DNA of 64,000 nt. Source: Deltaproteobacteria bacterium GWB2_55_19 (GTDB taxonomy: Bacteria > Desulfobacterota > GWC2-55-46). Within the stretch, counting starts at the first letter, position 1; the number at the start of each line of letters is the position of its first letter. The translations under genes and the position numbers were made by a program. Below the pieces are notes generated by a model, which saw only the letters and a list, made by a program, of their open reading frames with translations, was not told the DNA's origin and did no database searches. Where the stretch lies: the NCBI GenBank assembly GCA_001797465.1, contig MGPQ01000005.1, positions 95,032 to 159,031 of the forward strand, read 5' to 3'. Shown here piece by piece: positions 12,534 to 45,842 of this stretch.

Positions 12534-13943
12534 TTAAATGCCGCTTATTTTCGGGAATTGCACCCGTATATACGGGTCATGAACCATGGCCGTCTCCCCT
12601 TTGAACATTATCCCCTCCTTCCGCATGTAGAACCATCGTGGGGCAAGAGCCACAACCCGTTCTTTCAGCACAAGCCTTTCTTCAACTTCCCTTAAAGACA
12701 CCCCCGTCTTCTCCCCCGAAAGATTCAGGATTGGCTGCTGCATCTTCTTGAGTGGCGTCGATTCCTCTACGAATTTCGAGGTCTTTTCATGGTTGACCCG
12801 CATGAAAACCCACGTATTGATGTTATCCAGGATGGACTGAGCCGCTTCCAAGCCTATCTCTTCCTCTATCTGCGCGATACTCTGGGTGAAGAAATGAAGC
12901 CACACCCCGGCGCCTCCGCCCTTGTTGAAAAGCTCCTGTATCCCCTTGTAAAGCACGTTATGCCCCTCGTCCACATAGACGCACAGAGGCGGATTGAGCG
13001 TCCTGCCGGAAGCGAAAAACCGTCCTACCGTTGACTGGATCATCGAAAGAAGCACCCTCCCGATTATGTGAGCGGTCCGGCGCGACAGAAGGCTTCCTGT
13101 ATTGCATACGAGTATCACCCCCCTGTTCCCTTCCTCGAACCTCTTTACAAATTCATTGGTGTAGGCCTTGCCTATGATGCGTCCTGTGGTGGATGACGTG
13201 AGAGCCGTAAGGGTGGTCCTCAACGACGAAGACACTTTTGCGAAAAAATCGGTCGGAGAAGCTATGATCTGTGCTATATCGGCGCATACCTCCTGGGCGA
13301 CCGTAGCCACGGCATGGTCAGTATGGTCCTTCAACATCGAGATGGTCTCCCTGAACTGCTCAAGGCTCTCGCGGCTGGACCTCTGTTTAATGTCGTAAAA
13401 ACTGAGCCTCGGCTTTTCGCCCTTGGCCTTCGCCAGCGCAATAAGCCCCTCAACGATTACGGTGCTTATCTCGCTAGCTACGTTAATGAAGTATTCCTCC
13501 TTGGCCCGGATGCCGGAAACCACGTGGTCCACAAGTTCATCAGGCATGTAAAAGTGCGCGAGCGGGTCTATCCGCAGGGAGTAATCGGGATATATAGGAG
13601 TGACAAGCATAAGGTCATTTAAACGGCCGGATTCGACTGCGGACTGAACAACCATGGAAAATAGGTCCTGGTCGCCTTTCGGGTCTATGACTATTACGTT
13701 TCTCCCCCCCTTGATATCCTGCGTAATAAGGTGAGTTAAAAGTCTGGTCTTCCCTATCCTCGTGGTGCCGAAACAACCGAAATGACCGGCCCTTTCACGT
13801 GCACTGAGATAAAGAGGATGAGGTTTTATCTCCGAACGCAGACTTTTAACGAGAGACACACCCCTGCCAAGACATATACGACCGCCATCATTGGTTGTAC
13901 TGCCCTTCCTGTTGATATTGAACAACGTATCGATATCTGACAT
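12534..13943 (-). CDS. AAA-like (HerA/TraG/VirB4-like DUF87) P-loop ATPase
   Basis: A Walker A motif (FGTTRIGKTRL) and a VIVIDPKGD motif typical of HerA/VirB4/T4CP ATPases are present. The start ATG overlaps the upstream stop as TGATG, suggesting translational coupling. Confidence 0.5.
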   Translation of the reverse strand: MSDIDTLFNINRKGSTTNDGGRICLGRGVSLVKSLRSEIKPHPLYLSARERAGHFGCFGTTRIGKTRLLTHLITQDIKGGRNVIVIDPKGDQDLFSMVVQSAVESGRLNDLMLVTPIYPDYSLRIDPLAHFYMPDELVDHVVSGIRAKEEYFINVASEISTVIVEGLIALAKAKGEKPRLSFYDIKQRSSRESLEQFRETISMLKDHTDHAVATVAQEVCADIAQIIASPTDFFAKVSSSLRTTLTALTSSTTGRIIGKAYTNEFVKRFEEGNRGVILVCNTGSLLSRRTAHIIGRVLLSMIQSTVGRFFASGRTLNPPLCVYVDEGHNVLYKGIQELFNKGGGAGVWLHFFTQSIAQIEEEIGLEAAQSILDNINTWVFMRVNHEKTSKFVEESTPLKKMQQPILNLSGEKTGVSLREVEERLVLKERVVALAPRWFYMRKEGIMFKGETAMVHDPYIRVQFPKISGI

Positions 13944-22529: not shown

Positions 22530-22587
22530 TTCCTCCTCCTTTCATAGGGCTTGTAAACCTGAATTTCATAATCTCCTCTCCTTTTCT

Positions 22588-22671
22588 GAAATAAAAAAAG
22601 CCACAGGAAAAGATTCCCGTGGCTTTATGTTCGTGAGACCTACTGAAATAACTACATGTCTGTATATTACC
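22588..22671 (-). repeat. conserved intergenic element, copy 3
   Basis: It has the hairpin GCCACAGGAAAAGATTCCCGTGGC plus the core. A partial second hairpin copy (22686-22707) lies just upstream on the minus strand. Confidence 0.75.
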
Positions 22672-22725
22672 TCTGAAATAAAAAAGGCCACAGGAACCAC
22701 CATGGCCTCGATGTTTTTAAAACTC

Positions 22726-24601: not shown

Positions 24602-24681
24602 CTCCTTCTTTGAAAAAAAAGAGGGGATAAATATTTATCCCCTCAGCTCTTTACCTTGCCGATCGTTTACCGGTCCGGCAG

Positions 24682-25779
24682 TCAGTTTTTATATTGCTCG
24701 TTCAATGCCGGCTGGGTCATTCGTGAAAGATATGTCTTTAAAGGGTCTTTTCCGTTAAATTCCGGAAAAATGCCCCTGACACGATTCCTCTCAAGAATCC
24801 CCTTGATTATCCTTCCTGCCTCTCTCCCGGGTCCGTCATTGTCCACAGCGACGAACGCCTCTTCAGGCTTCATGCATTTCAAAAGCCTTTCGATTTCAGC
24901 CGCCTGCCCGACACCATTTAAGGCCACCAGTGTAGCATCCTGCAGATCGAACAGATTCTCGCCTGCAAGGGCGTCAAGCACCGATTCCGTAATCAGTAGC
25001 CGTTTTGGGTTTCTCTTGAAGACCCAAAGGGACTTTATCCCGTAACACTTCCTTTTCTTCCTGAAATCGGCTGACATCTCCATGGAAGCCGGGAAATATT
25101 CGCGAAGCTCAAGTCCCCTCAGGTCCGAAGGATACGGCACCGGAATCGTTATATACTTCGTGGAATGCTTGAAATCCACAAAGAGTCTGGCTTCGATCTC
25201 CGGATAATAAGCCAGGCCGCGGTCCGTAAAGTAACTTTTGACCGTGGACCCGGAATCCGGCAGCCTCGCGTGCACCTCGCGCGCATAAAGCGCCTTCTCA
25301 AGCTTTCCGGCAGAAGATTCCTCCTTCCTGTTGTTAGATGGCTCCATGCGTTTTTTCTGCGTTATGCCTCCCCTGTCGTACCAGCCATTAAAACGGGAAA
25401 GTCTGGCAACGGAATCGCTGAACGAATATCCTAGCCTGCGGAGAAGCGCAATGGCATCCCCTCCCGTCCTCAATGCCGACCTGTGATCGAACCAAAGCCA
25501 TACGCCATCCCGGTATGAAACATGGAGCGATGGCGTTTTTTCCTCGCCAAAAGGGCTCAGATAAAACCTGCCGTTTCCGTCAAACGTAACAGGCGTCAGC
25601 CCTAATTCCATCTCAAGAAATGACGGAAGGTCAACGGTCCTGGCAAGATCCAAAGCATTCTCATCTATCATCAAACACCTCCCTTCCGCTTTGCCATGAT
25701 GTCCTCGAATGAAATCGCAGAGGCTCATCAGGCCACTCCTTCTTACAAAAGAAGAAAACCCTAAGTCCTCCACTGTCAA
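24682..25779 (-). CDS. Toprim-domain primase-like protein (DUF3991/TraC-like)
   Basis: The C-terminal Toprim motifs ITESVLDAL and VAVDNDGPGREAG (DxD) are present. Confidence 0.5.
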   Translation of the reverse strand: MTVEDLGFSSFVRRSGLMSLCDFIRGHHGKAEGRCLMIDENALDLARTVDLPSFLEMELGLTPVTFDGNGRFYLSPFGEEKTPSLHVSYRDGVWLWFDHRSALRTGGDAIALLRRLGYSFSDSVARLSRFNGWYDRGGITQKKRMEPSNNRKEESSAGKLEKALYAREVHARLPDSGSTVKSYFTDRGLAYYPEIEARLFVDFKHSTKYITIPVPYPSDLRGLELREYFPASMEMSADFRKKRKCYGIKSLWVFKRNPKRLLITESVLDALAGENLFDLQDATLVALNGVGQAAEIERLLKCMKPEEAFVAVDNDGPGREAGRIIKGILERNRVRGIFPEFNGKDPLKTYLSRMTQPALNEQYKN

Positions 25780-25798
25780 AGGTGTAAAAAGTTCATTT

Positions 25799-27139
25799 TT
25801 AATACCTGTTTAGCATCTGCTCGGTCAGCTTATTGAGAGCCTGCCTGGCCTGTTCATTCGTAAGGGCGTAGAACGAATCCGCGCCGCAAAGTTTGTGGAG
25901 CCTTTCTTTTATCTCAGTTTTTGACTTGCAAACCCCGGCAAGCGACTTCCACAGAAGCTCGGCCGTGGAGGACAGCTTTTTCTCCACATCCTTCTCTTCC
26001 GGAACCGTATCGGGTACCGAAGCAGTCCCAAAAGTCTCGGTTGGCTCGACCTTCCCGGTTCCATTGCCGTTCAAATCGGCATTATTCTTTTCGTGATTTG
26101 CCGGCTTTTCCCTCTCAAAGTTTGGCACCTCTTCGACCGGTTCCCTTTTTTCAGAGACAAATGATGCATTGGACGGGGCCAGCATATTAGCGGCGGCAAA
26201 CCCGGCTGATAAGAGATTGCCGGATTCATACCTTGCAGCAAGCGCCGTCATGTCCACGTCGGCCTCCAGCTTTATAAGCCACTGAGAGGTCTTTACAGAC
26301 TTGCCGGTTTTAGGATCTATCCTCGAAACCTCCTCATTCACCTTTCGGATGCGAAAGATCGACTTGCCTCCGAACGTGCCTGAAAGCCTGCCTCCTGTTA
26401 TCCTGGATACCAATTCAAGCGAGCTCTTTATGTCCACAAGGGAGTACCAGGATGATGTCGGTAACATCCACAGTCCCGCACCGGAAATACCCGGTATGTA
26501 GAACTGTACGGCGCCCCTGAACGCGCATTCGCCTGATTGGTACTCGACACAGGTCGCTGGGTCACACGGTCTTTCATCCCATGCCCTGCCGCCGAATACC
26601 TTTATGCCAGGCTTGAGGTCGAGTGGATAAGTACAGATACTTTCGGCATCCAGTCCATCTCCGTTTTTCTCCTTCACAAGCTTGAAGTCGCTTTTGTATT
26701 TAAGCCCTGCGGAGCCGTAGCATATTAATGAATGAGGGACGATGTTCCACCACTCGTTCATAGGAAACACGACTGGAAAGGACCTGAGTTTTCCGTCCCC
26801 GTCCGCATAGAGCTGCGTCAGCTTATGCGCATTTTCCGGGTTTACGCAATCACCGGGGAATACCGAAAAATAATCAACATTTTTAGGTATAAGTTTCGCC
26901 CTACCACCTCCATCCGTGCCTAACTTGGCTTCTATCTCATCCCATGTCTTTCCTTGAGCCGCCAACGTTTTATAAAGCTCGACGTCGGAAGCCGAACAGC
27001 TGCTCTTGGGAACCATGATCCCGGGCCGGATTACGCCGGATTTAGGGAACTTGAACTTGGGTCCCAAAAGCGTCATTATCTCGGTAATTGTAGCCGGATC
27101 GTCTCGCTCGACTTTACTTGATGCGGAATCAGTATCCAT
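25799..27139 (-). CDS. hypothetical protein (446 aa)
   Basis: A large ORF directly after intergenic element copy 4 with no confident motif. Confidence 0.4.
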   Translation of the reverse strand: MDTDSASSKVERDDPATITEIMTLLGPKFKFPKSGVIRPGIMVPKSSCSASDVELYKTLAAQGKTWDEIEAKLGTDGGGRAKLIPKNVDYFSVFPGDCVNPENAHKLTQLYADGDGKLRSFPVVFPMNEWWNIVPHSLICYGSAGLKYKSDFKLVKEKNGDGLDAESICTYPLDLKPGIKVFGGRAWDERPCDPATCVEYQSGECAFRGAVQFYIPGISGAGLWMLPTSSWYSLVDIKSSLELVSRITGGRLSGTFGGKSIFRIRKVNEEVSRIDPKTGKSVKTSQWLIKLEADVDMTALAARYESGNLLSAGFAAANMLAPSNASFVSEKREPVEEVPNFEREKPANHEKNNADLNGNGTGKVEPTETFGTASVPDTVPEEKDVEKKLSSTAELLWKSLAGVCKSKTEIKERLHKLCGADSFYALTNEQARQALNKLTEQMLNRY

Positions 27140-27202
27140 TTTCTACCTCCTTTTTTTATGCGTCCGACTTTTGACATATAGTCCTTTACCATCCTTTTTT
27201 TT

Positions 27203-27285
27203 GAATAAAAAAAAGCCACAGGAAAAGCATTCCTATGGCTTTTGTTCGTTGATCTACTGAAAAAACTACATGTCTATATATTACC
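27203..27285 (-). repeat. conserved intergenic element, copy 4
   Basis: It has the hairpin AGCCACAGGAAAAGCATTCCTATGGCT plus the core TTTGTTCGTTGATCTACTGAAAAAACTACATGTCTATATATTACC. Confidence 0.75.
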
Positions 27286-27624
27286 GTGGTTTCGCCAAAT
27301 GGCAAAAGGACATGGAAGGAGCACGGAGCTAACCATTACCTCGACTGCGAGATGCTGAACGCCGGAGCCGCCTATATGCTACAGGTTCACAGGCTGAGGC
27401 CCAAGGGAGTCCCCCGACCAAGCGGCTATCGGACGGAGGGTTATAAACAAGGGGACAGAAATTTAGGGAGGAGGTTTGCCTTGGGAAAACTACTCTATCG
27501 CGTTGACGAGGTTGCGAAAATAATCGCCAGCAGCAGAAGCGGAATCTACGAACTTCTTAAGCGGGGCGAGCTTATCGCCCATAATCCCAGGCTCGGACGC
27601 AAGGGAATTAAGGATAACCGCTGA
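27286..27624 (+). CDS. excisionase/AlpA/MerR-type helix-turn-helix DNA-binding protein (start uncertain, possibly TTG near 27479 after GGGAGGAGG)
   Basis: The C-terminal LYRVDEVAKIIASSRSGIYELLKRGELIAHNPRLGRKGI matches the HTH_17/excisionase family. It lies on the opposite strand from the block and abuts intergenic element copy 4. Confidence 0.45.
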   Translation: MVSPNGKRTWKEHGANHYLDCEMLNAGAAYMLQVHRLRPKGVPRPSGYRTEGYKQGDRNLGRRFALGKLLYRVDEVAKIIASSRSGIYELLKRGELIAHNPRLGRKGIKDNR

Positions 27625-27698
27625 ATCAATCAACGCTTTTTTGGCGAAACACTTGATACCGACTACTGATGAGTTCAAGACCTGATAATAACGCAAAG

Positions 27699-28058
27699 CT
27701 ACCCAACAATGGGTGCTCTGATCAACGGTTCTAATATCACACTGTTTCCAATAACAATTATTTGAGTCTTGAAGATAAGAATACCTTTACTCACTCTCCC
27801 CTTATGTACAAAAGAATCGGTTCTGTATTCTATAAAATGGTCGAGCCCTGTATTTTTACTGTGACCTGTCGAGGGATAGGAGAGTCTGATATGGTTGTCT
27901 GTAACATCTTCAACGAACCAAAGCTCGGGCAAATCGACATTAGCAGGAATTTCTATTCTAGGTGCTGGGTGAATTCTTACCCAACCCCTTAATGTTTTAA
28001 GTTTCTTTTTGTTCATATGTCTTCCAGATAACGCCTCGCGTGAGCTAATTAGGGGCAC
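27699..28058 (-). CDS. hypothetical protein (start probably the ATG at 28016)
   Basis: An ORF in an AT-richer segment. Coding status is uncertain. Confidence 0.25.
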   Translation of the reverse strand: MPLISSREALSGRHMNKKKLKTLRGWVRIHPAPRIEIPANVDLPELWFVEDVTDNHIRLSYPSTGHSKNTGLDHFIEYRTDSFVHKGRVSKGILIFKTQIIVIGNSVILEPLIRAPIVG

Positions 28059-28102
28059 CCCAGCGTCCCCCGAGGCCAGTTCGACGCGGATGTTAGGCTA
28101 AT

Positions 28103-28591
28103 TTATGTTAGTGTCTGGCACAAAACGTTAAAAGCGTTCTTGAAGTCCTGAAAATAGGGTTCAATGACGAAAAAGTATTGTTTGCCATCAAATCCAATTC
28201 CAGTTGCCGCCTGCGAATGTGACCGCACCGCGATAATACAGTCCTGTTTCACATAGTACTCATGTGCCAAACCGCAACGGAAGATCTTGTAGGCGTTATG
28301 CTGGGACAGGAACTGTTGGTATGACGGCCCGAGATCTTTAAAGAAATCGTCGAAGTTTTTTTTCGAATTCTGATCGGAAAAGTCATTGTTCTTCAGTCTG
28401 CCAGCAAATTCGGTATACGAAAGTAGCGCCAAGGCAGCCATAAAGTTTGCTCCACCCGGATGAACCTTGGCTCGGCGCAGACAGAACCGTCCGAGAAAAT
28501 GCTCAGAAGCGTCTGCAAGCGCTATTTCGCGTTCTATATCGGCAAAGATGAAATTTTTGGCCTGAAAAAGTTTCTGCTTGTCCATTCCCAT
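28103..28591 (-). CDS. HEPN-like domain protein (abortive-infection-type candidate)
   Basis: R-x4-H motif (RCGLAHE) in a helical 162-aa protein. Confidence 0.35.
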   Translation of the reverse strand: MGMDKQKLFQAKNFIFADIEREIALADASEHFLGRFCLRRAKVHPGGANFMAALALLSYTEFAGRLKNNDFSDQNSKKNFDDFFKDLGPSYQQFLSQHNAYKIFRCGLAHEYYVKQDCIIAVRSHSQAATGIGFDGKQYFFVIEPYFQDFKNAFNVLCQTLT

Positions 28592-28628
28592 ATCAACGTT
28601 ATACTTTAGCCAGGACTCCTCAAGAAAC

Positions 28629-29708
28629 TCATTGGAAGTCGCCTACAATAGTTGTGCACCTACAACCAATATCGCATGTGCATTTTGCGTAAGGAAGCTC
28701 AGGCACACTCTCCACTTTGTACTTCTTTCCACCGATCTTTTGACATTCTGCGCAAGTATTCCCGTCATCGACGCTGCTCACTTCGACTGTCTTAACCCGA
28801 GCTTCCTTGTAACCCGCCATATTGCGGAGGTGGGCGGCATAAAAGACAAACATTCGGCAAGCAGCATCGCTGTCCAGGCGGCTGCCTGTTTCAAAATCAT
28901 CCGGCAGCCAACGTCCTGCGATGTTTATACCCCACAACTGCATCATCGCGGCGGATAGACGCAATTTGTCGAGTCGATCTTCCTCTATATCCTTCAAGAT
29001 TTCTGGCGTCCTTTCAAAAATTATCTTTAACGACTCGACACCTGGTTCAACATCGTAGTCTTTCCAGTCGATTCCGAGGCCACGCGGAAATATTTGATAA
29101 GTTTCATACTGAGCAACGATACGAACGGCTTTCGAGAACTCTTTCCTCACTAGAAGGTCAACAACGTCACGCTCTGCAGCGTCTCTCTTTGCTTTTTCGC
29201 CTTCGAGATAATGCTCTGCGAGCCGCATCCCCTCTTTTGTGCATCGGTATATATCAAGGCCCTTCGTTGCGTCACGCATTGATTGCTCGTCGTTCTCAAT
29301 GAGGCGCTGGATAAGTTCTTCCTTGCGGCCGGAAATCTTTAAACCCCTCTCCTTTAGCATCGGTTTAAGATCGGAGACCTTGAATTTATAGTCCACGAGT
29401 TCTTGCAATCCCGCCGGTTCCAGCACCCCTTCTTTAAGAAATTGCTCAATGACTTTAAGAGGTTTTTCCTTGAGTACTGTTTCCCAATATTCGGCACCAC
29501 GGTATCTATCGGTGGAATCACCGCTTCGGAATTTGCTCAATAGAAGCAAATGTGCTGGCGAGTTTCTCCAATCCTTCTTACGCAACCAACCAAACATGCC
29601 CCTTCCTCTCTTGTGTGCCCTAACGTTTTGGTGAGCGGCGCGGCAATTAGAGGCGTCCGCTGTCTGCCAAGAAGTTGTTGCCCGTGCTTCTGCCGCTCTG
29701 GGCTGCAT
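28629..29708 (-). CDS. SAP-domain protein with C-terminal Cys cluster
   Basis: A SAP motif LKPMLKERGLKISGRKEELIQRLI is present. The C-terminus has CAECQ...CTCDIGCRC. Confidence 0.45.
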   Translation of the reverse strand: MQPRAAEARATTSWQTADASNCRAAHQNVRAHKRGRGMFGWLRKKDWRNSPAHLLLLSKFRSGDSTDRYRGAEYWETVLKEKPLKVIEQFLKEGVLEPAGLQELVDYKFKVSDLKPMLKERGLKISGRKEELIQRLIENDEQSMRDATKGLDIYRCTKEGMRLAEHYLEGEKAKRDAAERDVVDLLVRKEFSKAVRIVAQYETYQIFPRGLGIDWKDYDVEPGVESLKIIFERTPEILKDIEEDRLDKLRLSAAMMQLWGINIAGRWLPDDFETGSRLDSDAACRMFVFYAAHLRNMAGYKEARVKTVEVSSVDDGNTCAECQKIGGKKYKVESVPELPYAKCTCDIGCRCTTIVGDFQ

Positions 29709-30031
29709 TATGCCGTAACTGCTTTAGAACGGCGTGATTTTTCCGGTTCAATACTGATTTTCAAACCAACAACATGAAGTAGATTGAAAACGCTTTTAAG
29801 TTCCGGATTGCCTTTCTTAGAAAGCATACGATAAAGGCTTTCTCGATTTATATGCGCTTTTTTTGCGATCGTAGACATTCCGCCGTGAGCCTGAGCCACG
29901 TTTCGCATTGCCAAGAGAAACACCTCTTTATCTCCGTCCTCGATAGCCGCATTAAGATATGCGGCTGCCTCGCGAGGATCTTTTAACGCCTCAATCAGGT
30001 CTTCCTGATAACTCGTGATTTTTTTTGTCAT
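29708..30031 (-). CDS. addiction-module antidote protein (HigA-like, TIGR02684-type HTH)
   Basis: EALKDPREAAAYLNAAIEDGD...MSTIAKKAHINRESLYRMLSKKGNPELKSVFNLL is the typical antidote pattern. It overlaps the toxin stop by 4 nt. Confidence 0.75.
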   Translation of the reverse strand: MTKKITSYQEDLIEALKDPREAAAYLNAAIEDGDKEVFLLAMRNVAQAHGGMSTIAKKAHINRESLYRMLSKKGNPELKSVFNLLHVVGLKISIEPEKSRRSKAVTA

Positions 30032-30360
30032 TGTTCCCTCTCTTTATGGTCTTCCCAGTAAGCTTTTGCCTGTAAGATATCTTTTTTCTGCGTTGATTTG
30101 TCACCGCCGAGCAGCAACAATACCACTGTCTTTCCGTTCAGCGCGTAGTAAACCCTGTACCCTGGGCCGTAATCAATCTTTAATTCATATACCCCTTCAC
30201 CGACATTGCGATTCTTGCCTAAATTACCGAGTCTGACTCTATCCAATCTTATGCGAATTTTTGCCCTTGTAATGCCGTCTAACCCGTCCACCCATTCCTT
30301 GAACGGCTTCTTGTTGGTTGCTGTCAGGTAATACTCGATAGTGTACGGATACGTTTCCAT
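30028..30360 (-). CDS. addiction-module killer protein (RelE/HigB superfamily, Gp49-like TIGR02683 type)
   Basis: FKEWVDGLDGITRAKIRIRLDRVRLGNLGKNRNVGEGVYELKIDYGPGYRVYY..LLLLGGDKSTQKKDI matches the killer-protein family. Confidence 0.75.
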   Translation of the reverse strand: METYPYTIEYYLTATNKKPFKEWVDGLDGITRAKIRIRLDRVRLGNLGKNRNVGEGVYELKIDYGPGYRVYYALNGKTVVLLLLGGDKSTQKKDILQAKAYWEDHKEREQ

Positions 30361-30365
30361 TAGTT

Positions 30366-30387
30366 TTATTGTAGCTTATAAGCTACG
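30366..30387. promoter_or_regulatory. perfect 16-bp palindrome GTAGCTTATAAGCTAC immediately upstream of the toxin-antitoxin operon (candidate operator)
   Basis: The inverted repeat TTGTAGCTTATAAGCTACGCAA lies 6 bp upstream of the toxin start. Confidence 0.45.
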
Positions 30388-30477
30388 CAAAATCAAGTCT
30401 TTTTATATCCTTTTTTATCCATTTAAAAACCCTTATTAGGCACTCTCAAGGAGATGAATCCTGAAATGAAAAATACG

Positions 30478-30515
30478 AAAAAAAGCCCGAAGGAAACCCT
30501 CGGGCTGATTCATCT
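30478..30515 (-). terminator. intrinsic terminator after dnaN-like gene
   Basis: On the minus strand the hairpin GCCCGAGGGTTTCCTTCGGGC is followed by TTTTTTTCGTATTTTTC. Confidence 0.5.
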
Positions 30516-30585
30516 TTTGCTTCAGTATCAGAAAACTACCACACAGAACCGCAAATCAAATCCCAGGACGCCTGATTTGTGTTTA

Positions 30586-31674
30586 TCAGTTCATTACGGG
30601 CATTATTAGGTTGAAATACCCAGTCGTATCCGCCGGCTTAACGACTATCGCACTGGCCTCGTCCTTAAATTCCAGCCTGACCTTCTCTCCTTCTACAGCC
30701 CTTACCGCTTCGGTCAAGTAGGAAGAGTTGACCTTTATCTTCAGGCTCTCTCCGCTATACTCGGCCTCGGATTCCTCTGTCTCATCGCCTATATTCGAGA
30801 GCGAGGATATGGTCAGGCCCTGCGGATTCATATCGAGTGTCACCATGGAATTCCTGTTCTCGAGTATGATCATCGCGCGTCGCAGCATGGCCATTAATGC
30901 CTCTCTCGACATGACAAGAACCCTGTTGTTTACGCTCTCTCCCGGAACAGCCTTCTTGTAATCCACGAAATCAGCGTGTATCAAGGAGACAACTACCTTG
31001 ATGTTACCGTCTCTCAGAACGAAATAGGTCTTATCCGCCCCGATCATAACGGTTCCTTCCGCCTTTTTAAGAAGGCGCTGGACTTCACGGACACCTGCTT
31101 TCGATATAAAAAGACTGTCTTTCAGCTCTATTGGACCCTCAATACATGCCAGCCTGTAACCATCGGTGGCGACAGCCCTTGCAGCAGTTGTCCCGTCTTT
31201 CTCAAGAAAGAGCCCGTTGATAAAAATCCTGTCATTTGCTATGGGAACCGCGAATACGGTCTTCTCTATCATCCCCCTGAAAGTCTTGCCATCCACCGGA
31301 TACATAGCGCTTTCGTCGATGGAAGGAAAGGAAGGATAATTGTCAGGAACAGGAACCTTTCCGTTGAAAGAGACTCTGGTCTTCTCCGACTTAGCCGTTA
31401 ACTTCGCTTCCTTGGCTGAAAGGGCCACGGAGTCACCCGAAAAAGTCTTCAAAACCTCGTAAAATTTATTGGCATTGACCAGAAATGCACCATCCTTGGC
31501 TATATCTGCCACATCTGTCATAGCAGACAGATAAACACCATCCTTCACGATCTGCACCTTCGCGGTCAGATGGCCAGACGAAGCCTCTAACAACAACTCA
31601 TCGGTATCCCCGACCGTTGATGCCACGATGTCGAGAACGCGCTGTAGTTCCTTTTTGACAACCATTATTTTCAT
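30586..31674 (-). CDS. dnaN: DNA polymerase III beta sliding-clamp homologue (divergent)
   Basis: A 362-aa protein with three-domain clamp architecture. It carries ATDGYRLA and the C-terminal YFNLIMPVMN motif. Confidence 0.7.
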   Translation of the reverse strand: MKIMVVKKELQRVLDIVASTVGDTDELLLEASSGHLTAKVQIVKDGVYLSAMTDVADIAKDGAFLVNANKFYEVLKTFSGDSVALSAKEAKLTAKSEKTRVSFNGKVPVPDNYPSFPSIDESAMYPVDGKTFRGMIEKTVFAVPIANDRIFINGLFLEKDGTTAARAVATDGYRLACIEGPIELKDSLFISKAGVREVQRLLKKAEGTVMIGADKTYFVLRDGNIKVVVSLIHADFVDYKKAVPGESVNNRVLVMSREALMAMLRRAMIILENRNSMVTLDMNPQGLTISSLSNIGDETEESEAEYSGESLKIKVNSSYLTEAVRAVEGEKVRLEFKDEASAIVVKPADTTGYFNLIMPVMN

Positions 31675-31708
31675 CTACTTCCTCCTTTTCTCTAAAAAAC
31701 GCCTGACT

Positions 31709-33292: not shown

Positions 33293-33377
33293 TTAACAAC
33301 CCCCTTTTCTTTTACAATTTTTAATGCCGTTAAAATAAAACCTCGCCTTACGTTTTCTCCATAGTCCTCCTTTTTTT

Positions 33378-33458
33378 GAAATAAAAAAAAGCCACAGGAA
33401 AATTCCTATGGCTTTTTATTCGTTCACCTACTGAAAAAACTACATGTCTATATATTAC
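33378..33458 (-). repeat. conserved intergenic element, copy 5
   Basis: It has the hairpin GCCACAGGAAAATTCCTATGGC plus the core. A 4-codon mini-ORF (MEKT) follows the hairpin on the minus strand. Confidence 0.75.
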
Positions 33459-33472
33459 TTCAGACTACAACT

Positions 33473-34588
33473 TCATCTCTCTTCCGGGTAAAGCACCGTA
33501 ACCACCCATCCTCCCGGATGGCGCTCAGGGAAACCCCATATCTCGCCTGTAGGATGGGATACTTTTATGATCCCGGAAATCCCCTCGTCAAACTTCTTTT
33601 TCACTTTGCTCATAATCTCGTCGACATCGGGCAGGGCCGCAACAGTTTGAGTCGCTACGTAAGTCGCTTTCCGCGGTTTGCTCTTTTTGTCTTGATACTC
33701 CGGCGGGACAGGACATCCCACCAGGTTAAGGAACCTTAACATGAACTCTTCGCTCCAATCGCCGCAGTTGCCGCAATACGCCATGCCCGACACCTCATCA
33801 CATGAGGACAGATACTGCCTTGCCTCTTCGACTGTCTGAGGGTCCTTACTATAGCAATTCGCACAGACTGGACAGATCGGATGACCGCAGGAAGGGCATT
33901 CAAGGACTTCGGACCTCAACACAGGGACCTTATATATAGCCCTCCCGCCGTGTATATCGCAATAAAATCCGGTTACTCGGATAAGCTTCCCTACAGCCTC
34001 TCTTTCGAGCTTCTTGATTTCCATGCCCAGCTCAAGACTCTGTTCCTCCCCTTCCTTCATTTTCTCACGGAGCGCCAAGACCCTGTTCGCAACATCAACA
34101 GGGATTTCAGCCTTATCGCTTTCGGTGCCTGGTACATACTTCCCGTTGGCCATGAGGGGATATTTTACAAGCCCCATTTGCAGAGCGACCTCAATGTCGT
34201 CTTTATGGTCAAAATGATCCCAGAGAACCCCGGTCTGTGCGTCAGAACAAGCCCTATCAAACGCCCAGCTCTCAATGTATTCATTTTCCTCAATCCCAGG
34301 ACATTCATTGGAAAACAGCCACTCCTTTATCTCGTTGTCACTCTTGCCGGAAAGCTCCGGGTGACCTTTTACAATGCCGTCAAGGTCGTCTTTATCAAGC
34401 TCGTTCCAAAGACATTCATTGATAAAGGCATCTCTGCATTCTCCGCCCTGACACGCCTCCTTTTCATAAAACTTGACTTGCTCCGCTACTGATTCATCAA
34501 AAGACTTCTGGTCCAGCGAATCCCACAACGTCTTCCCTTCTCTCCCTGTGAGTTCATAGCAATACTTTACGCCTTCCGCCATAGACAC
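33473..34588 (-). CDS. Cys-rich hypothetical protein (multiple CxxC zinc-binding clusters)
   Basis: CPSCGHPICPVCANC...CGNCGDW clusters are present. It has its own intergenic element (copy 6) upstream. Confidence 0.4.
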   Translation of the reverse strand: MSMAEGVKYCYELTGREGKTLWDSLDQKSFDESVAEQVKFYEKEACQGGECRDAFINECLWNELDKDDLDGIVKGHPELSGKSDNEIKEWLFSNECPGIEENEYIESWAFDRACSDAQTGVLWDHFDHKDDIEVALQMGLVKYPLMANGKYVPGTESDKAEIPVDVANRVLALREKMKEGEEQSLELGMEIKKLEREAVGKLIRVTGFYCDIHGGRAIYKVPVLRSEVLECPSCGHPICPVCANCYSKDPQTVEEARQYLSSCDEVSGMAYCGNCGDWSEEFMLRFLNLVGCPVPPEYQDKKSKPRKATYVATQTVAALPDVDEIMSKVKKKFDEGISGIIKVSHPTGEIWGFPERHPGGWVVTVLYPEER

Positions 34589-34597
34589 CTCCGTTTT

Positions 34598-34682
34598 TGA
34601 AATAAAAAAAAGCCACAGGAAAATTCCCGTGGCTTTTATGTTCGTGAGACCTACTGAAAAAACTACATGCCTATATATTACC
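34598..34682 (-). repeat. conserved intergenic element, copy 6
   Basis: It has the hairpin AGCCACAGGAAAATTCCCGTGGCT plus the core. The stop codon of the E1 gene lies inside the core. Confidence 0.75.
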
Positions 34683-35453
34683 TTTGATTCTCTTCCAGGC
34701 TTCGGGGTCGACCGGCAGTGGGTTCACTCTCATCGACTTGAGGTCGATAAAGCACCCGTGATTCTCAAGATGCCCCTGCCTGAAGCCTGTCCAGAGCAAC
34801 TGCACGGCCCAGGATGCGACAATCGTGTTTACCAGCAGGTCCTGATGTTCCAGAGCCACTGCAAGCGAACACGAGGGGCCCTGGGCCTTTTCCTTAACTT
34901 TCGTAAGATCATAAAGTTCGTCTACAGACGGCAAAACTGCTACAGCGTCTCTCCCTGGCGGCTGCGGTATATCCTTGAGAGACCCCAGTATCACCTGGCC
35001 AGTATCCCTTGTATTCCCAGTGTCGAGCCAGTAAAGACAGTGCGAGTCCAAACGGGCTGCCCTCCCGATAACCGTACGAGCCCTGGCCGAATCCACGGCG
35101 GATATCAGGATTGACGGTCGCACAGTATCGTCCGACCTGGAGCCATCGAAGGCGAAGGGACAGGCCTTCCAGGAGAACCCCATGAACTGGTTTATTTTAG
35201 TTACCGAGACCACCGCCTTGTTCCGTCCGACATCGAGCGGGGAGAAGTTCTGCCGCGCGATATTGGCTTCGCTAACATTGTCGTCGTCAAAAACCGACAC
35301 ATTCAGGCCGGGATGCCTTAACTGACATAGGGCGTAATGGAGCCTTGCCAGCCCGGTAAGTATCTGGCTACCGGTGCCGCCGCAACCTACAAGCGCGACA
35401 TAAACAGGTCCATCGGCTGCGGTTATCTCTTTATGCAGATAGTGTTTTTTCAT
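34671..35453 (-). CDS. ThiF/MoeB-family E1-like ubiquitin-activating enzyme homologue
   Basis: The nucleotide-binding Gly loop YVALVGCGGTGSQI is present. The 260-aa size fits a minimal E1. Confidence 0.75.
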   Translation of the reverse strand: MKKHYLHKEITAADGPVYVALVGCGGTGSQILTGLARLHYALCQLRHPGLNVSVFDDDNVSEANIARQNFSPLDVGRNKAVVSVTKINQFMGFSWKACPFAFDGSRSDDTVRPSILISAVDSARARTVIGRAARLDSHCLYWLDTGNTRDTGQVILGSLKDIPQPPGRDAVAVLPSVDELYDLTKVKEKAQGPSCSLAVALEHQDLLVNTIVASWAVQLLWTGFRQGHLENHGCFIDLKSMRVNPLPVDPEAWKRIKGNI

Positions 35454-36045
35454 CTAGAACACCCCTAAAAGTGAAAAAATGGCCTTCTATGCACAACCTT
35501 ACCTTAAGATTCGGTTGCATATTTTTGTCGAAGCTTATGACCCCTGAAAAACGTATCCCTCCCATGTCGTCATGGTCATCGACTCCGCTGAAGGCGGTCA
35601 TATCGAATGGGTGGCTGTGGAGGTCGACGACAAGATGACCTCCGTTAAGCTCCGGATACTCGTAGCTCACCGAGGAAGACGACTCTTTTATTATTGTCGG
35701 TTCCACGAAACGATACCCGTCAAGAGCGCCCCATACTATCCACCCAGCCCACTCAAGCCCCTTTCTAGCTTTATTCCTGGCAACCTCGATACTACGGTCC
35801 AGCAGAGACAGGGGGAGCTGTCCACTCTCAAGACGGTAAATATATTCCGCCTCCCCGTATGGCAGCGACCGTAGTGACTTCCATAAAGGAAGCCTGAAAT
35901 GCCCCCACGGGACCTTTGCCTCGACCCACAGCCCGTCAAAAGCCATCAGATACCTGTATCCCCCTTCAATTGCAGGGAGCTCGGAATACCTCGGCACCAT
36001 GACGACCGGACAGGCTTCCTGTATGATCCTGTCCTTAATATCCAT
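35431..36045 (-). CDS. JAB/MPN (JAMM) metalloprotease, deubiquitinase-like
   Basis: There is an exact JAMM motif H-S-H-x7-S-xx-D in VVDLHSHPFDMTAFSGVDDHDD. Confidence 0.75.
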   Translation of the reverse strand: MDIKDRIIQEACPVVMVPRYSELPAIEGGYRYLMAFDGLWVEAKVPWGHFRLPLWKSLRSLPYGEAEYIYRLESGQLPLSLLDRSIEVARNKARKGLEWAGWIVWGALDGYRFVEPTIIKESSSSVSYEYPELNGGHLVVDLHSHPFDMTAFSGVDDHDDMGGIRFSGVISFDKNMQPNLKVRLCIEGHFFTFRGVLDEKTLSA

Positions 36046-36748
36046 TTGTCACTCTTCTCCTTAAATCAGACAGCAGGTCGGAAACCGTCCTGCAACTACG
36101 GGACGGGACAAGTTGAGAGTCAGGGAACCTGGAAGCCCCTGATTTGACAAGACCGTCCCAGAACTCGGTCAAGGAGCCCGTCTTGACTCTATTTTCCTCC
36201 TGAACCTCTGAAAAACTGCTCTCGAAGAAAGCCTTTTCCCATCCACCGTAATCAAACGATCTTTCCGGGAGGGAGCTGTTGCCGAGGCACACATCAGAAC
36301 CGTGCATGTTCGGAAAAGGCGCGACATAAAGCCTCGTCTTCAGACCAGGCCTCTTGGTGCCCTTGACCGCATGGACCTTGAGATGTCCCCCATGTGTGAC
36401 AAAAACAAGACTCGGCCAAGGCGCATTCCCGCTCTTTGCATCGAGTTTCTCGAAGAAGATGTGCTTTACACTGCCTGGAACCCACCACACGTCGGGCCCC
36501 ATCGCCGAGCCTGAAGACGCAAGGACCCCGGCATCGATAAACCTCAGACTGTCGGATACGAGTCCGGGAAGTAGCTGCCTGCATAAAGCAGTCAGGTCCT
36601 CCAGCGTATACGGAACCCCTTCAAGCAGCATAGATCTGCCGTCCTGTTCCATGACCTTATGCCTTTGAAGATACATACTGTTGCCGTAGTACCCGTTAAA
36701 GGCCGAATACACGAGTATCGCCTCTGACAGCTTGTATTCGGTTAACAT
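36035..36748 (-). CDS. E2-like (UBC-fold) ubiquitin-conjugating enzyme homologue candidate
   Basis: FPNMHGSDVCLG resembles the E2 HPN..G..ICL active-site motif (PN followed 6-7 residues later by the catalytic Cys). It is positioned like BilB/E2 in E2-JAB-E1 operons. Confidence 0.45.
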   Translation of the reverse strand: MLTEYKLSEAILVYSAFNGYYGNSMYLQRHKVMEQDGRSMLLEGVPYTLEDLTALCRQLLPGLVSDSLRFIDAGVLASSGSAMGPDVWWVPGSVKHIFFEKLDAKSGNAPWPSLVFVTHGGHLKVHAVKGTKRPGLKTRLYVAPFPNMHGSDVCLGNSSLPERSFDYGGWEKAFFESSFSEVQEENRVKTGSLTEFWDGLVKSGASRFPDSQLVPSRSCRTVSDLLSDLRRRVTNGY

Positions 36749-36751
36749 AAT

Positions 36752-37933
36752 CTACTCCTTTCCTTTAGTGTTGAAAAAGCCGAACACCCTGCATAGACGC
36801 GCAAGCGTCCGCAATGTGTGCTTCAATTCGGAGACCTGGCGTTCCATTTGAGCTCCGGACTTAAACGGGATTTCCCAGTGACAGACGATATCGGAACCTG
36901 ATCCACTCTGCATAATGTTATCTATCTCTTCGCAGTAGTATTTAGTCACGGCATCTCTGTCATCAAAATCGTATAGGATGGAAAACATAAGCTCAGGCCT
37001 CAAACTCTCGTCTTCACAAACATCATGGATATTCCTGATCGCCGCAACCGGGTCATCTTCAAGAAATTCGATAACGGTTTTGAACCAATCGCAGTACCCC
37101 TTTTCAAAACCGTTTTTCGGTTTGAAGCGAGAGACATCTTTCTTAAAGGTTTTAAGTCTCTTTTTCACTTCCAAGCGTGAAGAGAAAAACCGGACAGCCG
37201 GATATGCCTTGATAGCGGCATAGGATTCCCGGTAGCGCTTGATATCCTCCTCGTCGTAGTTTCCCGGAACTTCCAGCTCAGGCAAAATGCAGTTCTCGTA
37301 AAAATCCTCGGCAGCATCCCTGATATCTCTCCATGTGTAACAAATGGTCCCCAACAGCTTCACCGCCTCGTCAAACATACAGGAAATCAGTTTTCCCCCG
37401 GAATCCAGTTCTCTTTTCTGCGCCAGATATACGAACGACAAAATATCGGAAACGGTGGTCTCAAAGGTCAATCCTAAAGAACCGTCATTACAACCGGTTA
37501 TAGACACCAGCACTCCGTTCCCATATGCCGACGAATACCCGTTAAGCTCGTCTGCAAGACACTTCGTCATATCAAGCACGAGCCTTGTGACACAGGCGCG
37601 ATCCTCCCAGTTCATTGAAATGCCCGGATTGACCTGAAGAATCGTTCTTGCAAGACCCTTGATGAAGAACTTGAGCTCCTTGTCCGAGAAAAACCCGACT
37701 TCAGGCCAGAAAGATGCCGGGGCGTTCAACTCGGGAAGCGCCAGCGCGGTAAAGGGAGGCAAGGTTACCGGCAGATTCACGGGTATAAGGAACTTTCCCC
37801 CGCTGCTCCGGCGCGCCAGCCTTTCAAACCCCTGTTGGACTTTTCTATCCGAAAAACCCGGATATGTTTCCCCTCTGGTCGAAAGAAAGGGGCGCCATCT
37901 GACTCCCCGCTGAAAGGAATTCAGGGTGAGCAT
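36752..37933 (-). CDS. hypothetical protein (393 aa) upstream of the E2/JAB/E1 genes
   Basis: There is no confident motif. GSLGLTFETTVSD is only weakly Pol-beta-NTase-like and lacks the second acidic residue. Confidence 0.35.
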   Translation of the reverse strand: MLTLNSFQRGVRWRPFLSTRGETYPGFSDRKVQQGFERLARRSSGGKFLIPVNLPVTLPPFTALALPELNAPASFWPEVGFFSDKELKFFIKGLARTILQVNPGISMNWEDRACVTRLVLDMTKCLADELNGYSSAYGNGVLVSITGCNDGSLGLTFETTVSDILSFVYLAQKRELDSGGKLISCMFDEAVKLLGTICYTWRDIRDAAEDFYENCILPELEVPGNYDEEDIKRYRESYAAIKAYPAVRFFSSRLEVKKRLKTFKKDVSRFKPKNGFEKGYCDWFKTVIEFLEDDPVAAIRNIHDVCEDESLRPELMFSILYDFDDRDAVTKYYCEEIDNIMQSGSGSDIVCHWEIPFKSGAQMERQVSELKHTLRTLARLCRVFGFFNTKGKE

Positions 37934-37937
37934 ATAT

Positions 37938-38456
37938 TCACCTCTTTGTCATGATCTCAATCAACGTATCCTTTTCCTCAGGGGTAAGGTAGAGATAATC
38001 CGGCATCGACTCCCCTTCCTGTCTGTCGTTAAGCTCAAGAGGAGCTGCAGTAACGACAGTCCCGAAAAAATTGACCAGAACCGTCTTCTCCACCGTCACC
38101 GGGTCCCCCCAGTCATCCCCATGCCTGATATCGTAATAGAACAGACCTGGTTCACGGTCGTTTTCAGGAATCCTGAACTCAGAGACCATAAGGATATTAT
38201 CAGGGTCTAAACGGGGCTTCCTTACCACCAGACATCCCTTGGTCCCTATCGCCTTTCTGAAGGCATAGACAAGCTCCCCGTTCTCGTTGTTCTCGGGCCC
38301 TTCGACGGCGGCCTGGGTGAGCTCGGGGTATACGCTCGAATAAAACGACCTTACTTCCTCAGGCTTCATATTGACATCCGGGTCCTGAAGGACCATCGAA
38401 TTGTATTTGAAAACCCTCTTTACCTCGGTTACTTCCGCCATTGTTTTCTCCTTCAA
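37938..38456 (-). CDS. hypothetical protein with possible N-terminal beta-grasp/Ubl-like region
   Basis: A 172-aa protein. Residues 1-75 end in ..AFRKAIGTKG, followed by a separate C-terminal region. The Ubl-like assignment is speculative. Confidence 0.3.
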   Translation of the reverse strand: MKEKTMAEVTEVKRVFKYNSMVLQDPDVNMKPEEVRSFYSSVYPELTQAAVEGPENNENGELVYAFRKAIGTKGCLVVRKPRLDPDNILMVSEFRIPENDREPGLFYYDIRHGDDWGDPVTVEKTVLVNFFGTVVTAAPLELNDRQEGESMPDYLYLTPEEKDTLIEIMTKR

Positions 38457-38478
38457 AGATTTTTTGTAGACGAACGCA

Positions 38479-38967
38479 TCAACCGAACAGGGTAGGGATC
38501 AGCGACTCCTTCTTATCCGGCGGAGCAGCGGCTTCCATGTTCTTACCTGACTCCATAGAGTCCTCAGATTCCGTACCATCTGTTTTTTTAGGCGATGGCA
38601 CTGTCCTGGCGGCAGACTTCTTTGCAGATTCCAGCTTCTTGTTGCAGGCTTCCTTCGCCTGTTTAAGCGCCTCTTGAGTGCTGTCGTCCAGTCCCTTCAG
38701 GGCCTCCTCGAAACTGCGCCTTCTGGTGCTATCCTGAGAAAGGATCTCCATGAACTTCCCGTCAAGCTCCTCCGTAGTGGCGGTTATGACAAAAGGCGAC
38801 CTTACCTTTTCGATGGCGTCACCGGCGTCCGTTACGTTGTTCAACTTCTTTTCTGGATATCTGGGATGCACCATGACACACAGCCTGCCGTCCTCGGCAA
38901 CCCTTAATGACAGGAGCAGATCCCCTTTTTCTGGTATCAAACTTTTAATCTCAGAAGCTTTCAGCAT
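38479..38967 (-). CDS. hypothetical protein (162 aa, ends in Gly)
   Basis: An N-terminal folded region is followed by a long charged tail ending ..PTLFG. Confidence 0.3.
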   Translation of the reverse strand: MLKASEIKSLIPEKGDLLLSLRVAEDGRLCVMVHPRYPEKKLNNVTDAGDAIEKVRSPFVITATTEELDGKFMEILSQDSTRRRSFEEALKGLDDSTQEALKQAKEACNKKLESAKKSAARTVPSPKKTDGTESEDSMESGKNMEAAAPPDKKESLIPTLFG

Positions 38968-39221: not shown

Positions 39222-39244
39222 CCACCTCCTTTTTGATTTTCTTC

Positions 39245-39328
39245 GAAATAAAAAAAGCCACAGGAAAAAACTTCCCATGGCTTTATGTTCGTGATACCTA
39301 CTGAAAAAACTACATATCTATATATTAT
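39245..39328 (-). repeat. conserved intergenic element, copy 7
   Basis: It has the hairpin AGCCACAGGAAAAAACTTCCCATGGCT plus the core. Confidence 0.75.
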
Positions 39329-39336
39329 CTCTTTTA

Positions 39337-41805: not shown

Positions 41806-41957
41806 CTCAAAAGCCGATCCGGGTGGTTATAACAAAACCCATAAACAGTAAACCTATCAGAATGCACCCGGCTGCAAAAATCTCAAGAGTTAGCAATGCC
41901 AAATTACGACCTCCTTTCTTTATATTTAAGTTATTTGCCGCCTTCTTTTTGTTTTCA

Positions 41958-42041
41958 TGAAATAAAAAAAGCCACAGGAAAAGTTCCCGTGGCTTTATGT
42001 TCGTAAGACCTACTGAAAAAATTACATGTCTATATATTACC
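41958..42041 (-). repeat. conserved intergenic element, copy 8
   Basis: It has the hairpin GCCACAGGAAAAGTTCCCGTGGC plus the core. A possible 31-codon hydrophobic small ORF (TTG start after AAGGAGG) follows on the minus strand at about 41917-41822. Confidence 0.75.
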
Positions 42042-42046
42042 TGCTT

Positions 42047-45729: not shown

Positions 45730-45758
45730 ACTCCTTACACCTCCTTTTTGTGGTTTTT

Positions 45759-45842
45759 AAAATAAAAAAAGCCACAAGAACGAATTCTCGTGGCTTTTGT
45801 TCGTAAAGGCCTACTGAAAAAATTACATACTCATATATTACC
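45759..45842 (-). repeat. conserved intergenic element, copy 9 (most upstream)
   Basis: It has the hairpin GCCACAAGAACGAATTCTCGTGGC plus the core TTTTGTTCGTAAAGGCCTACTGAAAAAATTACATACTCATATATTACC. Confidence 0.7.

Follow-up and report, generated by a model that had tools for sequence, protein, structure and literature searches.

A toxin–antitoxin operon with a predicted palindromic operator in the mosaic cargo slot of a PRTRC-type conjugative element from a groundwater Deltaproteobacterium

The window analysed here (the whole stretch of DNA, 64,000 nucleotides of contig MGPQ01000005.1) is a PRTRC-type conjugative element of a groundwater Deltaproteobacterium, in which nearly all genes lie on the minus strand. 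We focus on an AT-richer islet, around positions 27,625–30,420, that carries a toxin-first toxin–antitoxin (TA) pair, followed by a gene for a SAP-domain protein and a gene for a 162-aa protein with an Rx4H motif. The explanation that best fits the data, and that we regard as quite likely, is a mosaic in a cargo slot of the element, in which a self-repressing TA addiction operon lies beside independent cargo genes. The main features, in the order in which the minus strand is read, are as follows.

30368–30396, minus strand: predicted sigma-70-type promoter of the TA operon, found by consensus scan (-35 TTGATT at 30396–30391, 17-nt spacer, -10 TACAAT at 30373–30368)
30371–30386, no strand: perfect 16-bp palindrome GTAGCTTATAAGCTAC, predicted operator
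30028–30360, minus strand: toxin gene, 110 aa, RelE/ParE superfamily, Gp49/HigB-like, TIGR02683 'upstream of HI1419'
29708–30031, minus strand: antitoxin gene, 107 aa, HTH 'addiction module antidote', TIGR02684 / PF21716
29686–30406, minus strand: mobile TA cassette with approximate limits (promoter, toxin, antitoxin and ~22 nt)
28629–29597, minus strand: gene for a SAP-domain protein, 322 aa, with a C-terminal MuF/SPP1-gp7-like Cys cluster (CxxC...C-x5-CRC)
28103–28591, minus strand: gene for a 162-aa protein of an unannotated family, candidate HEPN-like RNase effector, R105-x4-H110

The two TA genes form a killer/antidote pair with a 4-nt overlap, as an earlier sequence-only reading of this DNA had proposed: the toxin stop and the antitoxin start share ATGA, and the toxin comes first. 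The toxin scores 116.5 bits against TIGR02683, above the curated cut-off of 62.85, and 30.2 bits against Pfam Gp49 (cut-off 23.9), and it matches the PHROGs family phrog_3445, 'toxin', with an E-value of 1e-31. The antitoxin scores 72.6 bits against TIGR02684 (cut-off 53.7) and 66.6 bits against PF21716 (cut-off 27), and it matches phrog_4268, 'transcriptional repressor', with an E-value of 5e-28; its homologue adjoins a toxin homologue in 70 of 80 loci. The Pfam scan gave no match, even at E ≤ 0.1, to PF05015 (canonical HigB) or PF01381 (HTH_3), which rules out a canonical HigBA identity. DhiTA was rejected as well, as NF048016 (DhiA) reaches 27.2 bits of the 200 needed and shares the HTH region only. 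The family matches, together with the missing PF05015 and HTH_3 matches, place the pair in the Gp49-like, toxin-first branch of the RelE/ParE superfamily; by predicted function it is a type II TA pair and an ordinary addiction cassette. The name 'HigB/HigA-type' given to it earlier therefore holds in the broad sense of the toxin-first 'HigBA-type' modules, but not in that of the PF05015 family of Rts1 and Vibrio. By analogy with its family, the toxin is most likely a ribosome-dependent mRNA endonuclease. No solved structure was found for any relative of the toxin or the antitoxin.

The pair shares with the TIGR02683/TIGR02684 pairs ('upstream of HI1419' / 'downstream of HI1420') both scores well above the cut-offs, the toxin-first order, the lengths of 110 and 107 aa and the overlapping genes. 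We found no difference and regard the window pair as an environmental member of that family, which we take to be the RelE–HTH pair COG3657–COG3636; that COG pair is reportedly listed in Makarova et al. 2009 (PMC2701414). Better-studied systems are more distant. The Gp49-like toxin-first branch has been named 'HigBA-type'; in its reversed TA operons the antitoxin represses its own operon, and the toxin–antitoxin complex does so more strongly (PMC5906591). Modules of this kind, described as reversed, 'HigBA-type' or Tad-like, occur on plasmids, prophages and integrative conjugative elements (ICEs) (PMC5906591, PMC8265657, PMC2701414). Tad-Ata (Paracoccus pAMI2; phage N15 gp49/gp48; SXT homologues) and the Gp49-type 'HigBA' systems (A. 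baumannii HigBA2, IncC tad-ata) resemble the window pair in having a Gp49-domain toxin of the RelE superfamily, a reversed gene order, an HTH antitoxin and a location on mobile elements. Autorepression by the antitoxin or the complex and stabilisation of the element, both reported for these systems (PMC5906591, PMC8265657, PMC2701414), are proposed for the window pair. The pair differs from Tad-Ata in its weak Gp49 match (30 bits) and in an antitoxin of PF21716 rather than HTH_3/Xre; Tad-Ata is assigned to COG4679/COG5606, a sister pairing (PMC2701414). Canonical HigB/HigA systems (Rts1, Vibrio cholerae, Proteus; PF05015 and HTH_3), from which the profile searches separate the window pair, are alike in being toxin-first and in combining a RelE-fold mRNA interferase with an HTH antitoxin and promoter-overlapping operators. 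TA modules are known to stabilise ICEs, as does MosAT, which aids the maintenance of the SXT ICE (PMC2654960); the MosAT protein families are unrelated to the window pair, and the likeness would be one of function only.

The palindrome GTAGCTTATAAGCTAC, which occurs once in the window, is fused to the operon promoter: it covers 13 nt of the spacer, and its last three nucleotides, TAC, are the first three of the -10. From its end to the toxin ATG there are 10 nt (aataaaacta), and not the 6 bp proposed earlier. The ATG lies 7 nt past the -10 and is preceded by no Shine-Dalgarno (SD) sequence, which makes it probable that the toxin mRNA has little or no leader. The antitoxin has an SD of its own, GAGGG, inside the 3' end of the toxin gene and 4 nt before the antitoxin ATG. 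Upstream, a predicted intrinsic terminator behind the clamp gene (30484–30506, minus strand; 10-bp stem with 7 GC pairs and a T7 tail) insulates the TA promoter from upstream transcription. Two other perfect 16-bp palindromes lie in the window, at 12562–12577 (ACCCGTATATACGGGT) and at 24625–24640 (GGATAAATATTTATCC), the latter in the intergenic DNA that separates the primase gene from the DUF6094 gene.

The significance of the palindrome comes from its position and its conservation at other loci, not from its mere occurrence. The same 16-mer, in the same register with the -35 and -10, is found upstream of homologues whose toxins are 41–70% identical to that of the window. A scan of viral contigs for the exact 16-mer returned 59 loci, roughly the chance expectation; in one of these (L095), on an unrelated AT-rich viral contig, it immediately precedes a TA homologue whose toxin is only 41% identical, in the layout TTGATT-N4-palindrome-AAT-N6-ATG seen in the window. 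A second viral homologue (L050) carries the 14/16 variant GTAGCCCATGAGCTAC. The metagenomic sample comprised 80 loci with toxin homologues of 45–95% identity, which provided 70 usable upstream regions. GTAGC-N6-GCTAC, with at most one arm mismatch, is present near the start in 31 of the 70, and a stringent symmetric GTA-N10-TAC 16-mer occurs in 22 of 68 upstream regions versus none of 1956 control chunks of the same loci. Thirty-seven distinct regions aligned on the palindrome share its -35/-10 register and yield the consensus CTTGACA-N4-GTAGCTTATAAGCTAC-AAT, beyond which the information content is close to zero. The arms vary on both sides at once, as GTATC..GATAC and GTAGT..ACTAC in this alignment and as GTAAC..GTTAC in additional loci. 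Conservation of a palindrome with symmetric variants would be expected if a cis-encoded, dimeric HTH protein bound it, and this gives strong, though indirect, support to the autoregulatory operator proposed in the sequence-only reading; we infer that the antitoxin is the protein that binds. No description of the conserved operator or of the leaderless layout of TIGR02683/TIGR02684 pairs was found in the searchable papers.

The palindrome could instead be the site of another factor, a recombination or cassette-boundary site, or simply a conserved part of the promoter. The left limit of the mobile TA cassette is no more than ~20 nt away, and the last three nucleotides of the palindrome belong to the -10, which could account for part of the conservation. 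Yet all 16 positions are conserved, including the 13 outside the -10, the palindrome is found together with the TA genes in unrelated genomes whose GC contents differ widely, and the antitoxin is the sole DNA-binding protein always found with it. Given these observations and the symmetric variation of the arms, we consider a role other than antitoxin operator very improbable, and the predicted operator strongly supported.

The TA operon lies in a part of the element that relatives fill differently. Homologues of the Gp3-like protein at 47–66% identity sit on elements with the same backbone order, in which the PRTRC cassette, a 368-aa gene and a 532-aa gene precede the slot, and the Gp3-like, primase, DUF6094 and SNF2 helicase genes follow it. 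In relatives with a ~66% identical backbone (L045, L047, L048), translated homology to the window ends at 31715 and restarts at 27136. Between these points L047 carries HicB and PRiA4_ORF3; L045 carries SEC-C, PLD and CsgG-type lipoprotein genes; and L048 carries an efflux/regulator block. As unrelated cargo occupies the place between shared flanks, the slot at 27,140–31,708, between a conserved 527-aa gene and the Gp3-like/primase module, is by this comparison a cargo hot spot. It also includes the sliding-clamp gene (30586–31674, minus strand; DnaN-like, three DNA_pol3_beta domains), which has a backbone-like GC content at third codon positions (GC3) of 0.58 and is missing at that position in the 66% relatives.

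Comparison of loci further indicates that the islet is a mosaic of separately mobile cassettes, not one insert. The limits of the TA cassette come from two comparisons. On the left, a TA pair with an 87% identical toxin in an unrelated context (L113) has homology that starts ~10 nt upstream of the -35. On the right, a sister element (L111/L112), whose clamp, toxin and antitoxin are 91%, 95% and 97–98% identical to those of the window, diverges ~22 nt past the antitoxin stop, where a different gene, of 157 aa, follows. L017 and L191 have both the SAP gene and the 162-aa gene, at 84–87% DNA identity, and L022 has the SAP gene alone. The later-acquired islet proposed from the sequence is thus supported, with refinements: relatives carry unrelated cargo, the insertion is composite, and the slot extends to the clamp gene.

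The composition of the islet sets it apart, as the sequence-only reading had also stated. Its GC content, 0.455 compared with 0.500 for the window, falls in the lowest 0.2% of stretches of that size; its five genes have a mean GC3 of 0.458 versus 0.599 ± 0.047 for 48 other genes, about three standard deviations lower; and its tetranucleotide distance is greater than that of any other same-size window sampled. A low GC content could also arise from small, weakly expressed or AT-biased genes that are native to the element: the drop is a modest 4.5 points, other 1-kb bins are similarly low (0.444 at 9001–10000 and 0.437 at 58001–59000), and no islet-free strain was found. We give this very little weight, as at its scale the region stands at the extreme of GC and tetranucleotide usage in the window, relatives fill the slot with unrelated genes, and each cassette is also known from unrelated contexts elsewhere.

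The first cargo gene behind the TA operon had been read as a 359-aa SAP-domain protein with a C-terminal Cys cluster. The domain and the cluster hold, whereas the protein is likely to have 322 aa and its cluster is the C-terminal half of a MuF/SPP1-gp7-like domain. An open reading frame (ORF) of 359 aa from 29708 exists, but the 261 homologues found cluster around 322 aa and begin at its M37 (MFGWL...); this ATG, at 29597, has a strong SD and is preceded by GAGAGGAAGGGG. The 36 extra N-terminal residues are therefore probably not translated. With the start at M37, the SAP gene does not abut the antitoxin stop. The SAP domain scores 39.5 bits against PF02037 (cut-off 23.9), and the family profile matches the SAP structures of Tho1 with an E-value of 1.8e-5. 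Over its final ~65 residues the protein aligns to the C-terminal half of MuF/SPP1 gp7, at profile positions 47–112 only and with the G/N-C-R-C motif included, with scores below cut-off (24.8 bits versus 29.6 for PF04233; 28.7 bits versus 39.65 for TIGR01641). Five cysteines and the GCRC motif are invariant in the family, some members of which pass Pfam's precomputed MuF threshold. A true MuF protein was ruled out on account of the half domain, the scores below cut-off and the lack of phage-head genes nearby, and we use 'MuF-C-like' only. Unlike in MuF/SPP1 gp7, the MuF-C-like part of the window protein is joined to a SAP domain and to a region resembling a winged helix, and the protein is encoded by a stand-alone gene.

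The SAP-protein family is found in many bacterial phyla and in one archaeal metagenome-assembled genome. An all-against-all comparison of neighbours at ~25 loci revealed no conserved partner of the SAP gene; the genes upstream of the homologue in L192, L193 and L020 are mutually unrelated, and its neighbours in L017 and L191 include HEPN, TIR and SIR2-like genes. We read the protein as probably the product of a stand-alone DNA-binding cargo gene. Some individual loci deserve mention. In Candidatus Omnitrophota (L018, L019, L023; locus positions 5189–6966), a RES-domain gene lies 26 nt upstream of the SAP+MuF-C homologue; RES-domain proteins are a family of NAD+-glycohydrolase toxins, for which an Xre-type antitoxin would normally be the expected neighbour. 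In Candidatus Thiodiazotropha endolucinida (L020, L021; locus positions 1–6966), the homologue lies downstream of a gene for a 909-aa family-B DNA polymerase and less than 6 kb from a Cas1 gene, a casposon-like neighbourhood. Within the window gene, at 28813–28853, contigs of several independent assemblies begin or break (L004, L006, L009, L011–L016), likely because of near-identical SAP copies in co-occurring genomes, such as P0001 at 98% identity. An apparent truncated variant of 307 aa (L008) and an apparent 160-bp 'insertion' (L011) were traced to runs of N that two scaffolds have at this place.

The 162-aa protein belongs to a family for which an exhaustive search returned 349 cluster representatives. 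The R105-x4-H110 motif noticed earlier is present, and both residues are at least 90% conserved in 44 homologues that are 27–57% identical to the query; D18, R21, E22, GGGN, YTE and Y112 are near-invariant together with R105 and H110. In the structure model (pLDDT 94.7), a bundle of helices is interrupted by a small three-stranded beta element, residues 118–142, between the motif helix and the last helix. Its homologues adjoin TIR, SIR2-like, AbiEi, HicAB, MNT, PIN and SNase genes. It resembles the HEPN toxins and abortive-infection HEPN proteins (the HEPN–MNT toxins 7ae2 and 5yep; AbiV; LsoA; Csm6) in its small predicted all-alpha bundle, the Rx4H motif and the TA or defence neighbourhoods. 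It differs from them in having no significant Pfam HEPN match, no MNT or other conserved partner, and the extra beta element.

The protein may instead be a helical bundle of another kind (DinB/YfiT-like, HPt-like or structural), in which Rx4H is coincidental or serves other chemistry. Foldseek against the PDB and the sequence profile against PDB sequences both gave no significant match, the Pfam scan of 44 members returned faint HEPN hits in two (HEPN_Apea, E 0.016; HEPN_MAE_28990, E 0.064), and hhalign against a Pfam-HEPN protein aligned only the 10-residue RxxxxHEY motif, at a probability of 0.4%. The near-invariance of R105 and H110 in so diverged a family, and genomic neighbourhoods typical of HEPN genes, speak against a coincidence. 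On balance, 'HEPN-like' is the best reading and is favoured somewhat, though membership is not established; a non-HEPN bundle has an appreciable but smaller chance of being correct.

Under the preferred explanation of the islet, a dimer of the antitoxin, probably held more tightly as the toxin–antitoxin complex, would bind GTAGCTTATAAGCTAC. As the bound palindrome comprises spacer and the first three nucleotides of the -10 of the sole operon promoter, we propose that binding would occlude RNA polymerase and autorepress the operon. The toxin would be translated from a leaderless or near-leaderless mRNA that lacks an SD, and the antitoxin from its own SD with coupling through ATGA, a difference that would favour antitoxin synthesis even though the toxin gene comes first. 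If the element were lost, labile antitoxin would no longer be resupplied and the toxin would be freed, and the resulting post-segregational growth arrest would stabilise the element. The SAP+MuF-C and 162-aa genes would be independent cargo of the defence-island kind, encoding a DNA-binding protein and a probable HEPN-type RNase. As for the 'defence/addiction' label in the sequence-only reading, the putative defence role is suggested by gene-neighbourhood association only and finds no PADLOC counterpart.

The four genes might also form one anti-phage (abortive-infection) system transcribed from the TA promoter, with the SAP protein as the sensor of foreign DNA and with the HEPN-like protein, the toxin or both as effectors. 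The genes are co-oriented, with no minus-strand terminator predicted from 30,360 to 28,103, and the neighbourhoods of SAP and 162-aa homologues resemble defence islands. Both HEPN and RelE-type toxins commonly act as effectors of abortive infection. Against a joint system, the 80 TA homologues have neither a SAP nor a 162-aa neighbour, TA neighbours are missing from the ~25 SAP loci, of which L017 alone carries the 162-aa gene, and the four genes match no PADLOC model. Moreover, the sister element keeps the TA pair and swaps the SAP gene for a different one, with the junction 22 nt past the antitoxin stop. We consider such a system improbable and prefer the mosaic of an addiction operon and independent cargo.

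Several observations weigh against the mosaic explanation or parts of it. Three perfect 16-bp palindromes occur in the 64-kb window versus ~1 expected, and 61% of simulated sequences contain at least one, so a lone palindrome of this kind is not beyond chance and it is comparison that carries the case for the operator. Roughly one in four homologous loci has no recognisable palindrome of the GTAGC-N6-GCTAC type; for some, a wrong start call or a different operator may be the reason. No empty site was found in this lineage, as all 16 contigs that carry the exact proteins, 97.5–100% identical, have the islet. The TA pair is at the same place in the sister element, so it may predate the other parts of the islet. 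Finally, the search of islet proteins against PADLOC-DB 2.0 gave no defence-system match except a chance-level hit to mad1 (E 0.007).

The remaining features of the slot's right-hand end and of the backbone are listed below.

27699–28016, minus strand: 105-aa ORF (119 aa from a GTG at 28058), called as a gene by source pipelines
27481–27624, plus strand: 47-aa HTH_17 / excisionase-like gene with a TTG start preceded by GGGAGGAGG
27292–27438, plus strand: relic of the C-terminal part of a GpA-type terminase large subunit, abutting the intergenic cassette
27197–27284, minus strand: copy of a repeated intergenic cassette (conserved box and hairpin/T-run), immediately 5' of the Gp3-like gene, marking the right-hand boundary of the islet
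34671–38967: complete PRTRC (ParB-related, ThiF-related) cassette with PRTRC_E, Prok_Ub, Prok-E2_D, JAB and ThiF, from the gene tables of source contigs

The 105-aa ORF has the lowest GC3 of the window (0.37) and no family in the Pfam, TIGR/NCBIfam, PADLOC or PHROGs scans, and it is uncertain as a coding gene. Neither it nor the 47-aa HTH gene has a homologue in any fetched locus. Strain differences are concentrated in backbone genes and are absent from 27,001–28,500, where they are uninformative for the small ORFs. The 47-aa gene scores 23.6 bits against HTH_17, below the cut-off of 27, and matches TIGR01764 with an E-value of 2.7e-4; the L001 gene table also calls it, with HTH_17. Residues 3–51 of the terminase relic share 46% identity with a protein annotated as 'terminase gpA endonuclease subunit' (E 1e-3, weak), and the relic independently but weakly matches phrog_15, terminase large subunit (E 6.6e-4). 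Relic and HTH gene are probably debris of an earlier phage-derived insertion.

The intergenic cassette is ~90–100 nt long, lies on the minus strand and recurs 7–9 times (22578–22676, 27197–27284, 33366–33464, 34589–34687, 39236–39334, 41948–42046 and 45749–45847, with partial copies at 19273 and 20117). Each copy consists of the box GGTAATATATAGACATGTAGTTTTTTCAGTAGG, then a strong hairpin and T-run (AAAGCCACnGGAA...TTCCnGTGGCTTTTTTT), followed directly by the SD and ATG of the next gene. This order of box, terminator-like hairpin and gene is odd for a simple terminator and promoter pair. The copy at 27190–27300 folds with z = -2.9, and an Rfam search gave no family that matches the cassette. 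The islet had been said to lack any copy, and indeed none lies between those at 27197–27284 and 33366–33464, an interval that also contains two non-islet genes, for the clamp and the 527-aa protein.

The mobile element of the earlier reading can be identified as a conjugative element from its conjugation genes. Exact window proteins were found on groundwater metagenome contigs, one of which is that of Deltaproteobacteria bacterium GWB2_55_19 (210 kb). Type IV secretion system components, a coupling protein and PRTRC genes are all present: profile searches identified TrbI, TraK and a TraD/TraG-type coupling protein, besides ArdC and ParB, and the gene order of the PRTRC cassette is kept in relatives at 57–82% identity. 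Replication genes encode a ribonucleotide reductase, an SNF2 helicase, a Toprim/CHC2 primase, the 'Gp3-like' protein and the sliding clamp, and heavy-metal efflux genes were found as well. A megablast of 22–36 kb against GenBank phages gave no match, and a clamp-based scan of viral contigs revealed no relative.

Further observations concern the element outside the islet. A cobalamin riboswitch (RF00174, 121.7 bits) lies at 6758–6943 on the plus strand, upstream of a plus-strand ORF at 7174–7830. Two 39-nt direct repeats, 92% identical and 12.6 kb apart (46136–46174 and 58706–58744), flank a P-type ATPase / CusCBA-type metal-efflux block (47188–58041) and suggest a second nested insertion. A 134-nt direct repeat of 77% identity (60446–60579 and 60755–60888) is found near the window end, where genes turn to the plus strand. 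Differences between strains are patchy, at 4–7% in blocks of the Gp3-like gene (25001–27000, compared with L008/L009) and of the 371-aa/ThiF genes (34001–35000, compared with L003/L004) and zero elsewhere, which suggests recombination between co-existing variants of the element.

A bolder joint reading would see new defence-island families here. The 162-aa protein would represent an undescribed solo Rx4H HEPN clade with a beta element, spread over many phyla; the SAP+MuF-C protein, with its zinc cluster, would be a DNA-sensing or DNA-bound partner or regulator; the two genes, adjacent in the window element, L017 and L191, would form a two-gene anti-phage module; and the leaderless, operator-fused layout would be a family-wide device that keeps toxin synthesis below that of the antitoxin. 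We regard this combination as unlikely. What we consider new is of a mild kind, namely the family-wide operator, the leaderless layout and the two unannotated families; the rest is of known kinds, and its practical value will not surprise specialists.

The islet provides a worked example of a cargo hot spot in the little-studied PRTRC-type conjugative elements of uncultivated groundwater bacteria, with cassette boundaries resolved to a few tens of bases. The SAP+MuF-C and Rx4H HEPN-like families are widespread and unannotated, and are candidates for defence screens. For the whole TIGR02683/TIGR02684 family, comparison alone defines a predicted operator, in which GTAGC-N6-GCTAC is joined to the -10, and makes a leaderless toxin mRNA probable, so that autoregulation and the toxin:antitoxin ratio problem of reversed TA operons become directly testable with a 30-bp oligonucleotide.

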